A stretch of 63,879 nucleotides of DNA, counting the filler, from Olpidium bornovanus S191 (Eukaryota; Fungi; Olpidiomycota), in assembly GCA_017911155.1 (NCBI GenBank). It is 29 parts of 29 records of this genome, joined end to end, with 100 filler letters (N's around TTAATTAATTAA, not from the genome) between each part and the next. Parts side by side here need not be neighbours in the genome. Positions count along the whole stretch, not along the records: positions 53,143 to 54,200 come from JAEFCI010009317.1; 28 more parts are not named here. One strand, given 5' to 3'. Below, in pieces: positions 26,327 to 54,864 of the stretch. The position numbers and the translations under genes are program-made. The notes beneath the pieces are model-generated. The model saw nothing but the letters and a program-made list of their open reading frames with translations. It had not been told where the DNA came from and searched no databases. The stretch's first letter is position 1. Each line of letters opens with the position of its first letter.

Positions 26327-27262
26327 CTTAGCCCTTCAACAGGTCTCTTCGTTCTTCGATGTCACACTTTTGCCAGCGAACGGATTATTCTCATTTCCGG
26401 CGTCACGAATGATGTCTGTAACGCACCAAGTGAGAACATCCTGCTCGGACCAATCACTCNNNNNNNNNNNNNNNNNNNNNNNNNNNNNNNNNNNNNNNNN
26501 NNNTTAATTAATTAANNNNNNNNNNNNNNNNNNNNNNNNNNNNNNNNNNNNNNNNNNNNCATCGATATCCCTGTTGCGTGCATCGCGGTTGAAATTCCTC
26601 TTGGGATAGCATTTCGTGATTATGCACTTCGTCACAACCCGCAGAATTCGCCATCATCTGTTCGAGGTGTCGAAGCATGAAGACGCGAAACAGGAATGGG
26701 GGCATCCTGTCTTCTCGCTCGCACGTTGCTGCAAGCCCTTTGCGGTTACTGGCAGGTGGCCCTGGCACGTGAGCACACGAAGTCCAACTTGCGCAGTTCC
26801 CCCCCCCCCCTGTCCCGTCTGCTCCGATACCGCCGGCCGAAGAACCGCTTGGCGGGCCAAGCGGGGCGAAAGTCTTCCCCGCTGCTTTTGCTGCCGTTAA
26901 AGGGGTGCGCAGGATAACTAACCTGCTCGCCCCTTAGCTGATTGATATTTTAGATACGGATTCGGCGCGGGACGAAAGCTTTTTGCTCTGTCGCGCGTCG
27001 AGCGAACCAACAACAGAACAACGCGTTTTTTTTTTTTAGGTAACAGCGAGGATGAGAACTTGGGGCGGACGGCAGGGCGCAGTCGGGCGACTGCGAAGCC
27101 GCTGAGATGTCTTCGGAAATCGCGGCACCCGGAAACGACGTTTTGCTTGGCCGCTGTTTTTAGACGGCAGAGCAAGCGGGTTTAACGCGCATACGCTGAT
27201 TTTGGCAGCGTTTGGCTGCGAAACGCGTTTTCTAGGTAACGGGGAGGATGGATGGGCGGATG

Positions 27263-27385
27263 CGGTTAGGGTTTATGATTGGCGTTGGTTAGGGGCTAGG
27301 GGGTTAGGTCAGGGTTAGGGTTTGGAGTTGGGGTTAGTGCTGGGGTTAGTGCTGGGGTTAGCGTTGGGGTTAGCGTTGGGGCTAG
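27263..27385 (+). repeat. Degenerate telomere-like G-rich tandem repeat (GGGTTAGGG core; 12-bp units GGGGTTAGYGYT)
   Basis: GGGGTTAGTGCT twice and GGGGTTAGCGTT twice at 27330-27377, with flanking GGTTAGGG copies. Confidence 0.75.
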
Positions 27386-28064
27386 ACAGAGTTGAGGCTG
27401 GCGTTGGGATACGGTTGGGTTTAAACGATCTTGGCAGCCGTCTTCTTCGACGGGGGGGGGGGGGAAGGGGGGGGGGGCGGGGGGGGGGGGGGGGGGGGGG
27501 AGGGGGCGGTCAGGATGGGTTCTGACCGGATCAGACTGCATTCTGCTGGAACCTGGATACGGCAGGCTTCTTGCAGAACTTATGAACAAACTCAGGACGG
27601 TCTGCCAAACCCCCCCCCCCCGGGAAATTCCCACGTGGATCGTGTGGATCCTTTCTTGTCGTATTTTGAGCTCGAGTTTTTCCGCCCTCGGCGGATTGAT
27701 ACGTCTAGGATGCGAGCTTGCTCTTGACCTCCCTCGTCCTGGGTGATCGCGAGTAGTGTGCTTGGGTCCCCCCCTTCCCCCGCCCCAACGTGTACAGGGA
27801 ATTCTCGTCAATTGCCACGTCGCATCTCCAGATGACGTTTTTTCCATCGCTGTATTCCACAGGCGGCGGCTTTTGCTTGTCTTGGAATGTCCGACCGGGA
27901 CCAACTTCTCTCCGGCCAACGCCGGGGGGGGGAGCGAAGCTCACCGGCGCGCGCAGCGGTGTTCTCCTTTTTGACAAGCGGCCCGGACGTTTTTCCGGGC
28001 AGGGAAGGAGGGGGCCTTTTCTTCGGTTCGGCCTTTTCCAACAAAAAGGGCGTGGGCGGGAGAG

Positions 28065-28107
<43 letters not shown>

Positions 28108-28215
28108 GCGGGGGCNNNNNNNNNNNNNNNNNNNNNNNNNNNNNNNNNNNNNNNNNNNNTTAATTAATTAANNNNNNNNNNNNNNNNNNNNNNNNNNNNN
28201 NNNNNNNNNNNNNNN

Positions 28216-32095: not shown

Positions 32096-33740
32096 CCCGG
32101 ACACCTGCTCCTCGTGGACGACGGTGGACGTCCGCGTGTCCATGTTGTAGTCGATGACCTGTTTCGGCTGGATGAACGAGGTGTACGTGTAGCGCAGCAG
32201 GTTGGTGTCGAAGAGCACGCTTTTGGAAAGGTCGGCCACCTCCTCGTTTGTCGACACCGGCCACAGCGAGTACACGACCTCGCTAAAGGAGACGTAGTGG
32301 TACGAGTCGAACAGGCCCATCTGCACCGACGGGGCCGGCCGTGCCGGGTGCGACGGCGCTGCCGCGGCCGCGTCCTCGTACGCGGGAGGGAGCGGCGACG
32401 GCGGCGCCGACTGGGAGTCGGCGTTCGTGAGGTCGACGACGCGCACGTTCTGCAAGCAGTTCGACCGCTCGAACACGATCAGGTGCCGGGCGCGGACCTG
32501 GAAGTCCTCGATCAAAACAAAGTCCCGGTGGGGGATGACCGTCTCCCGATAGTTGTCCCCCAGCAGGTGGCCCGCGTGCGGCGCCTTGAGCATCATCTCG
32601 TACATCTCCGCATCGTCCGCCTGAGGGAATGGCACGCGAAACAGCCAGTTGTTCTTAGACTCCTCGTTCGTCAGCACGTACAGGAACCGCCGGTGCGACT
32701 CCACCGTGTATTGGATCTTCTCTCGCCGCGGGAACAGGACCAGCGGTAAGTCCAGAGGCCGGTCGGCCGAGATGAGTCGCGTCTCCGACGTGATCTGTGC
32801 CGCCGAGTTGAGCAGCAGGAACCTGCCGTTGCAGGTCTTCGTCAAAGTCAGACAATACATTTCGTCCTTCTCCTCGTAGAGCAGCACGTCCTCTTCGTCG
32901 TTCGTGGCATTCCCGCCCGCCGCGTGTGCGCCACCCGAATCGCCGCCAAATGTCAGCTCATGTCTCCAGAAGGAGCTGGCTCGCTCGAACTCGTCTACCA
33001 GCAGGTAGAACACGTATTTCCCGTCGTTCGAGAACTCAAACTGCTCGTACACGTCGCAGATCTTGTCCGGGAGCAGCTGCTTCGTTGCTAAATTCAAGAA
33101 ATAAGCGGTGTATCGTTCGTTGCCGGAAGAGTCCACGCCGTAAGCTATGACGGAACAGTCGGGCGAGTGCCTCACGAAACCCAATCGGAAAAAGCTCGCG
33201 TTCGCAAACGTCTCGGACCGCGCCAGTTCGTTCTCATCCAGATACACTTCGTTGTTGCCCTGCTGATTCATCCGGCAGTGTATCCGGTACTCCTGCCCTG
33301 GGATCTTTCGCGAATAATACGTGTAACCGTCGGAGAGAGTCACCCTTGCGGACTCCTCGGATTCGTCGAGACGCGACACAAATTCGTTATTTAAGATTTT
33401 TTGGAGAGGCTTTGTCGACGCCGTGCACTGTTCTGTGTACGCGTTTTCAGCTTCGATGTAACGCAAGACTAGAGGCGAGGTCGCAGATTTGTGGTTTTTT
33501 TTTGTTTTGCAAAGGCCACAAGCAAGCAAGATCCGCACGGATTTTGAGCGCTCCGCCGGGTCTCGCGAAGGACCGTACGCGCGAAACGAAAATCCCTACC
33601 CTCAACGTTCTCTTTGTCTGTAAGCCAGCTGTACGGATCCAGAAACTCCTCGCCGTAGCAGTTAACGGTCGCCACCGGTTTCTCGGCGCAGACCGGCGAA
33701 TCTGGCCGCGGATTTCGAGCCTGCTTGTCGCGATCCCTAT
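32096..33740 (-). CDS. Oligopeptidase B / protease II (peptidase S9A), N-terminal beta-propeller part; catalytic domain is off-contig
   Basis: PVCAEKPVATVNCYGEEFLDPYSWL, an intron, then VLRYIEAENAYT...YTYYSR...YLDENELA...SPDCSVIAYGVDSSGNERY...LRYTYTSFIQPKQVIDYNMDT. Confidence 0.88.
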
Positions 33741-34165
33741 TGATCCGAAGCCGTCGAACACATTAAGGTACAAACATGGCAAGAAGGCGAAAGAAAAAAA
33801 AGTTCTGTCATTGGGCCCCGGTGGCGCCGCTACCCTGCTCCAGGCCTTTGTACAGTGAGGATTCCACAGATGGGGCAACAGGGCCCGGTGCACGCGCACT
33901 GCGAGCCGTCCTCGCCTCCGCCTTCAACCCCTTCGTTCTCTACCGAAAGGGGCGAGTCCGCAAACGCCCGCAGAAAGAAATCGCCCCGGCCTTTTCCCCG
34001 AACCGGTGCTGTGCGGAACCTTGCTCACTATGCACTCCAATCGCGCACCAACGCCGCCATCAACCGAAAGTTGATCCCGCGGGTGGGCGATCGCCGTGAG
34101 ACGGCGCGCGCGTGGTATTACATTACATATGGGACCAAGTTCAAAAATAACGTAAGAACGCCATT

Positions 34166-35705
34166 TTATTCCTGCCATTGTCGCCCGGGCGACGCCACCC
34201 TGCACGCAGAACAAAAATTTTTTCCCCCCCCGGCTTTTTTCTCTTCCTTTTTCTGCTTCTTGTTCTGCGGCGGCTCTGCGCTTTCCTCTTTCTTCTTCTG
34301 CTTCTCGCTCTTCGACGGCGCTGTGCCTCTTTTCTTCTTCTTCTGCTTCTTGTTCTGCAATGGCGCTGTGGTAGAAAGGGTCTTGACGTTCGTCTCGTGG
34401 TACGCTGCACGCTTCTTTGCGGGAACCAGCCACGGCATCTCGAACGGTGGAACCTTCGCTTCCGCCACCCCGCACAAATATTCCAGTTCGGTAGTCCCCG
34501 GCTGCGAACGATGTAAAAGCCAACCGTGGAAGCGTGACAAAAAAATCACGACGTAAGCACTCCCTCCCGGTCTCCAGGGAAGCGGCTCTCTCGCACCTTC
34601 ACTGCCACCACGATCGGTTTGGTGCCCAGGACTTCGGCTAGCCTCGCCTGGCTCCCTTTCTCCAACGGCACGATCCGCACGCCGGCCTGTACGCTGAGTG
34701 CCGGCAGATGGGTGTACAGGTGCGGCGGCCGGATGTCGCCCTTGCACAGGAACACGGCCCGGACGGGCGGGGCGCCCGCGGCCGGATCTGCGGGCCGCGG
34801 GGTTTCGGACGATACCTGGCCGTCGTCGCGACGCGGTTCTTCCGCAGTCTGGCCGCCTGCAGATGGCTCGCTCGCACCACCGCCGAGGCCGGGTGCTTCC
34901 TTGCTTTGCCGCCGGGAGTCGCGTTCGTCTTCCTCTGCCGTCCGCTTCCGTTTCCCGAAGCTGAGCGGCGGCGGAGACGGCCGCGGTACGGCGTTTTCCA
35001 GCGCCTTCGTCACGCTGTTCAACCCAAGCGTCACAGACCGCAACAGGACGGACGGGCGCTCCGGCTCCCGCACCGGCGAACGGGCGTCCGCCGGTGCGGA
35101 CTCCGCCTGCCCACCGACGGGACGCGGCGCCTCGTCCGCCTTGGACGCCGCGCCGGCAGCGCGGCCCAAGGCTCTCTTCGATTTAAGGTAAGCGCGCCGC
35201 TCGCGGTTGTACTCGGCTAGCGGGCGCAGCGTTCTGCGCAAGCGTCGCGTGAGCAGGGCGGGGGAAGAGTCGGGGATGGGTCGGGAACCGGGGGCCGCGC
35301 AAACGCCGCCGGGGCGAAACCGACGCACGAGCACAGCAGGTCCAGCAACTCGTTGTGGTCTTGCGAGGAAATCGAGGGCCTGGCGGTTGTTGCGGCGGTG
35401 GAGAGGACGGGGGGAAACGGTGTGATTTCAAGGCAAAAAGGCGGGCGCGCGCGCGGCGGAACGGCCCTTCCGCACGAAGGTGCTTCCGGAGGAGGGGGGG
35501 GAGGCCTCTCCGGGCAGGAGTACAACACGCACCAGCGCACCACGTAGGGCGTGTCGAGGACGTGCTTGAACACCTGGCGGCGCGGCTCCTGCGCCTGCTG
35601 CTTGCGGAGGGTCTGGCCGCCGTGCGACGCAACGGCGGCAGCGCCTTTGCGCTGCTGCTTGCTGCTCGCCTGCCCGCCGGCGACGCTCCCTCCCTTCGGA
35701 CCCAT
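34166..35705 (-). CDS. POP3: RNase P/MRP subunit Pop3 (RPP38-like, L7Ae fold), multi-exon
   Basis: VFKHVLDTPY|W, PSISSQDHNELLDLLC, VTLGLNSVTKALE, AVFLCKGDIRPPHLYTHLPAL, RIVPLEKGSQARLAEVLG, and C-terminal VPPFEMPWL...YHETNVKTLSTTAP. Confidence 0.8.
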
Positions 35706-35750
35706 CTTTGCTGCGCGTCCGCCGTTGCGTTCTCTGGTCAGGCGGCTGGG

Positions 35751-35810
<60 letters not shown>

Positions 35811-53142: not shown

Positions 53143-53245
53143 ATGGGGGAGAAGGTTCCGGCGCGAGGAAGTTCCGCCTTTTATACCCGAGACCCTAACC
53201 GCCCTTCGAACTCTCGGGGGGCCTGTTGGAGAGTGGGTTGTAACA
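53143..53245 (-). mobile_element. LTR-like terminus abutting the Rep fragment
   Basis: The minus strand begins TGTTACA and has TATAAAA about 60 nt in; the segment runs to the contig edge. Confidence 0.4.
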
Positions 53246-53246
53246 G

Positions 53247-53549
53247 TATATTTTTTTTAGTTATGTCTTCCAGGAAGAACGCGGGGAGGAGGGGCCACCT
53301 CACCTCCAGGGATATGTCCATTACAAACATCAGGTGGCCCGCGCCACCCTCAAACAGTGAAACCTGCGACTACACTTTAAACCGGCGCAGTGTTTAAAGA
53401 GCTCGGTGGCCTACTGCTCCGACGAAAAAAGACACCACGGTTGAATCTGGAACAAGGGTTTTGACATTCAGGACGACCTCCACATACTCGACGAGGTCGA
53501 ACTTTTTACTTGGCAGAAGGAACTTGTCGCGGAAATAAGGGAGGACCCG
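53247..53549 (+). pseudogene. Endogenous CRESS-DNA-virus-like Rep (HUH endonuclease) fragment with two in-frame TGA stops
   Basis: The frame from 53262 reads YVFQEERGEEGPPHLQGYVHYKHQVARATLKQ*NLRLHFKPAQCLKSSVAYCSDEKRHHG*IWNKGFDIQDDLHILDEVELFTWQKELVAEIREDP. It holds RCR motif II (PHLQG, 53298-53312), motif III (YCSDE, 53412-53426) and the downstream WQ motif. Confidence 0.85.
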
Positions 53550-53550
53550 G

Positions 53551-54200
53551 TGTTGGCGCCCAAAATGGCCTTTGGCGGGCATCAACCCCGGCTTCGACTA
53601 CCCTAGCTTTTGAACCCCGTTCCCCTCAATTTCCCTCCGACATCGTTCGTTTTGCATCGTTTTGCCCCTTTGCCCCTTTTGCTCGTCTTGTATTATTTCA
53701 CTCACTTGCGCCCGCCTTTTACTTTTGCCTATCAGGGTCACGTGCGGCGACGCCGTCCACTTGTTCGGAGTGTTTTGGTTTCGCCACCCCTTTTTTTTTC
53801 CTTCCCAACGCAAAAAAAACCTCGACGTCGAATGCAACGTCAACCACCCAGAAACCCTACCATAGCCGATCCGTTTGCTTCAGAAAAAACAAGGCGTCGG
53901 GCTTGTTCGAGCGTCGAATTCTCCTTTGGTCCCGTTCTAGCGGAGGCGTCGGCCACCGCGACGGGTCGAGCAGCGTCGGCTGCTCTTTGTTTTTCTTTCT
54001 CTTCTCGTCTTTTCGTGTGCAGCGCCGGCTGCGGAAGAGTTCGAGGCCGCGTCCTAGAGCTATCGACGTCGGTCTGAGTGCGACACGCAAGCCCGTCTAT
54101 CAACCGGATCGCCCAGAGCCCCCTGCGGGCCCGAAGCCGACCCTGCCTTCTCTGCCGCTCGGACTCGATCTGATTGCCGGACGAAAGAAAGATAATATGG
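53551..54200. mobile_element. Possible second LTR/leader region interrupting the Rep
   Basis: Rep similarity ends exactly at TGTTGGCGCCC, a typical LTR terminus; the sequence after it is non-coding. Confidence 0.3.
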
Positions 54201-54300: not shown

Positions 54301-54817
54301 CAGGCAGCGCATAAATCAAGTACTCAGTCTTGTCAAATACGCGCGCCTTCTCCTGTTGGTCAAGCTGCTTGTTTTTCCGGTCGAACGCTCGGAAGACGGT
54401 CTCAACATCATCCGTATCATGCTTACCTTCGACCCACTCGGCGAACTTACGGGCGGTCATGCGGGACGCGTCCCGGAAACGGAACACCTCACAGAGCCGA
54501 TGCTTCGCCTGGCTCCATGCTCGCCTCTCGGTGGCAGCCCTTACCTGTGCGTCGCAGACTTCGTGGACTGTCAGTCGGAAGTACCGGACGTACTCGTCGT
54601 TGGTAAGTTCCCATTCCCGCACGGCACGCTCGAAGTGCTTTAAGTGAGACGATATGTTGTCGTCCCTGAACACCCCTTCTTCCTTGGTAAACTGGATAAC
54701 CGCTGCGCGCACCTCTGTCGCTCTCATCTGCTCAGCCAACGCGCGGATGTCGAACGCCGGCGGCGCGCGGACCTCGGCCGAAGCCGGCAGCGCAGACACG
54801 CGCGGCAGAGCCGCCAT
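54301..54817 (-). mobile_element. Ty3/Gypsy-type gag, 5' part
   Basis: An intronless ORF (FRDDNISSHLKHFE...W..AKHRLCEVFRFRD...DKTEYLIYALP) lying just downstream of an LTR end and primer-binding site. Confidence 0.65.
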
Positions 54818-54864
54818 GGCTCCGTCCTGCCGGCCACGGAACTGGACTTACCTTGCCCCTAGTT

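Follow-up and report, generated by a model that had tools for sequence, protein, structure and literature searches.

A broken CRESS-DNA virus Rep fragment joined to an Olpidium-labelled repeat as a likely endogenous element of an unclassified virus clade

A contig of the Olpidium bornovanus S191 assembly (GCA_017911155.1) carries a broken Rep fragment joined to a repeat shared with other contigs labelled O. bornovanus, and the fragment is probably a dead endogenous element of a virus likely to have infected the Olpidium lineage. The case rests on one copy, on a 1-kb contig, with the right junction only, and an integrated fragment indicates that the nucleus was exposed to viral DNA, which is not proof of productive infection. 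Olpidium is a flagellated fungus, a parasite of crop roots and a vector of plant viruses. The 79% identity of the fragment to an intact Rep ties an orphan clade of about 100 Rep clusters to this fungus. Endogenous fragments are an accepted route to hosts for CRESS lineages, most of which are represented by environmental DNA only (PMC9615429). Experimentally confirmed fungal ssDNA viruses are genomoviruses (10.64898/2026.04.22.720165), and known DNA viruses of fungi number no more than a handful (PMC13533422).

RESULTS

Rep identity of the fragment

The window, that is, the whole stretch of 63,879 nt analysed, consists of 29 unrelated contigs of 1.1-4.1 kb each, joined by N-TTAATTAATTAA-N spacers; the neighbouring contigs are therefore not the genomic context of the Rep fragment, whose true context is 1,058 bp only. 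Long homopolymer runs are abundant across the whole window. Elsewhere in it, a degenerate TTAGGG-like tandem repeat lies at 27300-27385 within contig 26560-28115, and a 182-codon frame on the minus strand at 54302-54847 is Gag-like by eye, with no Pfam hit at E 0.001. The features of the contig with the element are as follows.

53143..54200, no strand: whole contig with the element (1,058 bp, bounded on both sides by artificial N spacers); left viral junction not in view
53173..53198, minus strand: viral intergenic TATA box and GAGAC motif, from local alignment to intact circles
53247..53260, plus strand: 3' end of the Rep intron, a T-tract and AG acceptor (53259-53260), in position and phase as in spliced relatives
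53261..53549, plus strand: Rep exon 2, 5' part only (96 codons), decayed; includes the WQ motif as well as HUH motifs II and III, and ends before Walker A
53298..53312, plus strand: RCR motif II, PHLQG, intact; the conserved residue immediately preceding it is altered
53358..53360, plus strand: first in-frame TGA, at an alignment column that at least 90% of relatives conserve
53412..53423, plus strand: RCR motif III, YCSD, catalytic Tyr retained; the basic pair that follows is shifted
53442..53444, plus strand: second in-frame TGA, from the frame reading
53550..54178, plus strand: host dispersed repeat, starting exactly where Rep homology ends, matching P0244 and P0245, with a host-like k-mer score

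Re-reading 53244-53561 in a single plus-strand frame gave a Rep-like peptide with TGA codons at 53358-53360 and 53442-53444, reproducing the read-through peptide of the original prediction. With X at the stops, the peptide matched the Pfam family Viral_Rep (PF02407) at 29.7 bits (E 8.1e-7; cut-off 26), and the other eight frame stretches scanned on the contig matched no viral family in Pfam. When 5.8 billion proteins were searched, six of 70 candidates were hits; each is a Viral_Rep protein, and the top one is P0002, an intact environmental Rep (E 3.4e-49, 79% identity). The family match was placed by tblastn at 53253-53549, with homology stopping a few codons before Walker A. The proposed assignment to HUH rolling-circle Reps thus agrees with the profile score, the identity to P0002 and the tblastn match, and the proposed non-genomovirus type agrees with a match to Viral_Rep and none to Gemini_AL1. 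Details of the description required revision: within the span first given, 53247-53549, Rep coding begins at 53261 and 53247-53260 is intron end, not coding; and motifs II and III stand in the order described, whereas FTWQKEL...EDP, placed with them in one HUH motif series, has its FTWQKEL beyond the HUH domain.

The HUH motifs II and III are thus ordered and accompanied by a significant profile score, as in Cressdnaviricota Reps, while motif I and the entire SF3 helicase, present in the same gene in intact relatives, were found nowhere in the window by profile scan or tblastn. The fragment derives from the Cressdnaviricota Rep family and is not a working member of it. When 122 family proteins and the frames of the environmental loci L001-L007 were searched by tblastn against the 64-kb window, nothing off the contig fell below E 0.007, and neither the helicase of the family nor the capsids of L001-L007 matched elsewhere in the window. 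A scan of the viral collection with the fragment itself returned a single short, chance-like match only, and Rfam gave no match on contig 53143-54200. A best hit to Helitron RepHel, named beforehand as evidence against the viral reading, was absent, no Helitron family in Pfam being matched by the fragment or its relatives. The related Rep P0003 matched none of 72,556 plasmids at E 1e-3.

Decay of the fragment

Conserved columns were defined as those kept in at least 90% of 73 region-covering relatives (73 of the 95 aligned). The fragment is changed at five of 26 such columns and P0002 at none, and one of the 73 relatives reaches five; two of the five departures adjoin and may be one indel, in which case the count is three plus indels. 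In a tree of 26 rows built on the shared region, the fragment and P0002 form a pair (support 94/83, just under the support bar), with end branches of 0.24 for the fragment and 0.041 for P0002. This tree was used and a 63-row tree was set aside, its root being a long-branch artefact. P0002 has the expected residues in both stop columns, in line with the prediction that each stop is one transition from an expected residue. Inactivating decay, one of the two marks of an endogenous viral element considered here, is present as two stops, the changes in 5/26 columns and the long end branch. The stops, lost conserved sites and long end branch together form the pattern of lost selection, and the element, a dead pseudogene, would yield no working Rep and has no evident function.

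It is extremely improbable that the stops are not breaks, either with TGA as a sense codon, as in a mitochondrial virus, or with the fragment as a domesticated short HUH peptide. The first TGA does lie in a Trp column, and there is a description of a CRESS virus that replicates in the mitochondria of oomycetes (10.64898/2026.04.22.720165); however, the second TGA is outside the Trp columns, both Trp codons of the fragment are TGG, and the relatives, whose frames contain no stops in the standard code, have spliceosomal introns. The lack of a start, exon 1 and motif I, and the long end branch, also speak against this reading.

Repeat flank and right junction

A frame of the flank, searched against 1.84 billion representatives, gave three hits: P0244, P0245 and P0246, the last of which, an insect mucin, was dropped as low-complexity. 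A search of the ESM Atlas with the flank frame gave no usable hit. P0244 and P0245 are labelled Olpidium bornovanus and lie on contigs of 1,455 and 2,542 bp, respectively. P0244 matches 53588-53824 (E 1.5e-23), with its residues VSAPKMA facing VLAPKMA at 53550, and P0245 matches 53701-53763, 53886-53996 and 53957-54178, the matches of the two being colinear over 53588-54178, across frame shifts. On the strength of these matches, an interpretation of 54023-54200 as a host exon was given up in favour of a repeat. The stretch that P0244 shares with the flank has this same boundary as its start and follows immediately on a Ty3-like RT/RNase H segment. One repeat, with a common left end, therefore stands after a gypsy pol piece there and after a Rep piece here, with the reservation that P0244 and P0245 are gene models available as protein only, whose common boundary could partly be a predicted splice. 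The repeat reads TGT from 53551, a start that is perhaps an LTR end.

The k-mer scores (k=3) of the Rep part and the left part are virus-like (-0.008 and -0.021), whereas 53550-54200 scores as host-like at +0.026, compared with a host mean of +0.018 and a maximum of +0.014 among 36 virus tiles. The flank also resembles other window contigs in GC (56%) and CpG o/e (1.3). The origin of the window in a zoosporic fungal genome is borne out by a frame in contig 32096-35810, which is 100% identical to 'MAG: prolyl oligopeptidase [Olpidium bornovanus]', followed by chytrids at 55-60%. Viral sequence is thus contiguous with host DNA, the second mark of an endogenous viral element, at one junction only (the right). 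The fossil integration foreseen in the original prediction gains support from the decay and from a flank repeat common to two other O. bornovanus-labelled contigs, with one junction in view.

The contig and its repeat family may alternatively come from a different eukaryote whose DNA was included in this metagenome-assembled genome by binning, since the Olpidium records are labelled MAG, the species match comes from a different contig, and P0244 and P0245, being transposon-like and having no other homologues in the 1.84-billion library, give no independent taxonomic signal. We regard this as improbable, because the flank k-mer score is at the mean of the other 28 contigs, the GC and CpG values are unlike those of a plant genome, which is generally CpG-depleted, and the repeat is common to three contigs.

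Intron acceptor and promoter element on the left

The intron acceptor is kept at 53259-53260, and the captured molecule was therefore DNA, not spliced mRNA; no donor or exon 1 was found upstream of 53247 on the contig. The TATA piece at 53173-53198 stands about 80 bp upstream of the Rep part and 30 nt from the left contig end. Its best match is the Rep promoter region of L004, L005, L006, L011 and L014, inverted relative to the Rep fragment (21/21 nt to L005; 88-92% over 24-25 nt to the four other circles), and it also matches, in the same sense, the capsid-side TATA of L002, L003 and L007 (14/14 nt). The summed local score of the piece was 352, compared with 243 +/- 11.5 in 542 control tiles from the other window contigs, none of which reached 352. 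The TATA pattern had one occurrence in IMG/VR and none in prokaryote genomes. Intact circles have their capsid-side TATA 297-347 nt ahead of Rep exon 2; the spacing of about 80 bp here thus implies either that about 250 nt (origin and exon 1) were deleted or that the Rep promoter was inverted. No origin nonamer occurs on contig 53143-54200.

An inverted piece on a short contig would also suit a chimera, made during amplification or assembly, of free defective viral DNA and a host repeat, as phi29 over-amplifies small circular ssDNA and such amplification yields inversion-deletion chimeras. The chance of this is nevertheless small: two stops and lost conserved residues call for a long period of unselected decay, a free defective circle could not dispense with an origin and none is on the contig, and the join coincides with the boundary of the repeat as given by P0244, which a random chimera would rarely reach.

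The parent virus clade

Searching with P0002 returned 325 proteins at E 1e-20 or better. Among the 120 matches listed of these 325, 99 have at least 50% identity. Assemblies in Logan, JGI or ENA are the source of all those 99 listed relatives; NCBI and UniRef contribute none, and no named NCBI protein is among them. The relatives have a GC content of 47-56% and 57-79% amino-acid identity to the fragment, with about 70% nucleotide identity between the fragment and L001, L002, L003 and L007, and the fragment is nested in the clade with support of 98/95 against three outer Reps in the 26-row tree. A search of the ESM Atlas with P0003 gave only unnamed Cressdnaviricota clusters. A metagenome scan with the closest sub-clade gave three loci from 198 candidate stretches, all of them distant Reps with another helicase type.

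Twelve IMG/VR contigs (L001-L007 and L011-L015) close into circles of 1,988-2,271 nt. The circles with ORFs listed carry the Rep and capsid genes on opposite strands (ambisense), and the nonamer NAGTATTAC lies on the capsid-sense strand between the Rep and capsid 5' ends. Ten of the 12 circles carry, between motif I and motif II of Rep, a GT-AG intron of 57-79 nt whose end lies one base before the YxFQEE codons; L011 and L014 are without it. With the intron removed, 19-20 residues separate motif I from YxFQEE, and the unspliced P0003 has 19. Motif I is in frame in only 20 of 95 called proteins, and most database Reps of the clade are therefore mis-called at the N-terminus. The helicase of the clade has an unusual hhNLPR Walker B in most members, and xSGKYEG. 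L008, L009 and L010 have an HUH part like that of the clade and a helicase of another type, and are possibly chimeric Reps. A CRESS-type Rep 30% identical to P0003 was also observed at 2980-3873 of L016 (OP947160.1, Pinkberry virus LS07-2018-MD00, 19.6 kb), where it sits among tail and methyltransferase genes in a record of a phage collection.

L001 on one side and L002, L003 and L007 on the other have nearly identical Reps and two dissimilar capsid types, which may be taken as a sign of capsid exchange in the clade. A geminivirus-like capsid in the relatives was considered and rejected, as no Pfam or PDB sequence hit was obtained. Against PDB, a low-confidence structural model of the capsid (pLDDT 54) matched the jelly-rolls of circovirus, geminivirus and STNV with little difference between them; its best BFVD matches were unclassified CRESS capsids. 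Telomere-like arrays, (CCCTAA)5 at L001 1075-1104 and (CCCTAA)7 at L003 1995-2036, lie between the converging Rep and capsid 3' ends; the flank-plus-telomere-array pattern was found in IMG/VR only in L001 and L003 (2/12 circles), L004 and L015 having just two units.

DISCUSSION

Host and history of the element

The fragment may be a true Olpidium fossil but of another organism's virus, such as one of the host plant, a soil protist or another fungus, whose DNA integrated without infection. Olpidium lives in root cells and carries plant viruses on or in zoospores, there is a single fragment only, and no host is known for any of the relatives from Logan, JGI and ENA assemblies. It is generally understood, however, that for germ-line integration viral DNA must be present in the nucleus, a situation far commoner in a real host, and the GC content and short GT-AG introns of the relatives fit the Olpidium genome, although neither is specific; this origin is thus unlikely.

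Under the preferred reading, an endogenous element of a virus that infected the Olpidium lineage, we propose the following history. A virus of the clade would have replicated in the Olpidium nucleus, as suggested by its spliceosomal intron and TATA promoters. A piece of viral DNA may then have entered a chromosome by end-joining or Rep-mediated nick-joining, with the origin and exon 1 lost through deletion or inversion, and the integrated piece would have decayed without selection while stops built up. A mobile repeat, probably an LTR element, may have inserted later at 53550/53551, cutting off the helicase half; the other order, in which the viral piece landed at the end of a pre-existing repeat, would give the same picture.

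More tentatively, as a reading nearly as apt to hold as to fail, the 2.0-2.3 kb CRESS viruses with a motif I-II intron, an Asn-type Walker B and swappable capsids may be an unnamed mycovirus family of zoosporic fungi, separate from the genomoviruses and from BdDV-1, of which the Olpidium fossil would be the first host record. In the same reading, the TTAGGG arrays in two members may point to host telomere machinery or to telomere-near integration. Intact circles are predicted to turn up together with zoosporic fungi, and searches that allow for the intron and stops should reveal further fossils of this kind.

Family placement

The structural model of P0002 (pLDDT 67) had as named BFVD neighbours Reps of unclassified CRESS viruses, crucivirus, banana bunchy top virus, smacovirus and nanovirus satellites, none of its BFVD matches exceeding 41% identity, and PDB sequence hits were FBNYV and circovirus Reps. 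Reps of nanoviruses, alphasatellites, smacoviruses and cruciviruses share the PHLQG motif II, WQ motif and S.DRW finger with the fragment, but their genome plans differ from those of the clade circles. Neither PF00799 nor PF08283 (Gemini_AL1 type), expected in Genomoviridae and Geminiviridae, was hit by the fragment or by any of six relatives at E 0.1. Against Circoviridae, full-length PCV2 Rep matched at only E 0.007 and in the HUH part only, and Walker B of the core clade is mostly hhNLPR, not acidic. Alphasatellitidae and Nanoviridae have circles of about 1-1.4 kb with one gene each, whereas all 12 circles of the clade are 1,988-2,271 nt and their listed ORFs are Rep and capsid. In Smacoviridae, the origin stem-loop lies between the Rep and Cap 3' ends (PMC11463337), whereas in all 10 spliced circles the nonamer precedes Rep exon 2 by 204-241 nt and stands between the 5' ends. 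The initial description of the peptide as circo-, nano- and alphasatellite-like therefore holds for motif resemblance and not for the genome-level features of those families in intact relatives.

By the profile, motif and genome-plan features tested, the clade would lie outside Genomoviridae, Circoviridae, Nanoviridae, Alphasatellitidae and Smacoviridae, and it likely sits in Arfiviricetes. The term 'unclassified' refers here to those five families, and the clade may yet belong to one of the newer ICTV families (Adamaviridae, Kanorauviridae, Ouroboviridae, Gandrviridae, Mahapunaviridae, Anicreviridae and others) or to one of CRESSV1-39. The environmental clade itself (P0002, L001-L007 and L011-L015) shares with the fragment the same intron acceptor and the same TATA element, and differs in consisting of intact circles with an origin, a helicase (hhNLPR, xSGKYEG) and a jelly-roll capsid.

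Comparison with known fungal ssDNA elements

The literature searched, which covered few subscription papers, and the supplement of PMC9615429 contained no CRESS element in Olpidium and no host for the clade. The capybara-virus 'group 7' has a spliced Rep and an ambisense genome (PMC6723397). Compared by description, this group may be the same clade. Zhao, Lavington and Duffy reportedly surveyed CRESS endogenous elements in 2021, and their survey may list related fungal elements.

Endogenous CRESS Reps of fungi cluster near genomo- and geminiviruses, and these are likewise decayed Rep fragments in chromosomes, with parents of about 2.1 kb that are ambisense and have a spliced Rep and an origin between the 5' ends (PMC6186406). 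In contrast, the Olpidium fragment is of the Viral_Rep type without Gemini_AL1, and the intron of its clade separates motif I from motif II, whereas in genomoviruses the intron follows the endonuclease domain.

BdDV-1 of Batrachochytrium dendrobatidis is non-genomovirus CRESS DNA integrated in a chytrid genome, and its assignment to Circoviridae was based on a comparison with only three families (10.1101/2023.03.16.532857). As described there, it resembles the Olpidium element in its zoosporic fungal host, its position outside Genomoviridae and a unit of about 2.2 kb, and its locus has extra partial Rep copies; unlike the Olpidium element, it keeps Rep and Cap and is expressed, and an intron is not mentioned in the text. 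The Olpidium element, compared with BdDV-1 by description and not by sequence, is only a decayed Rep piece and belongs to a different fungal lineage. An integrated non-genomovirus CRESS element in a chytrid is thus already known from BdDV-1, whereas the host link for the present clade appears to be new.
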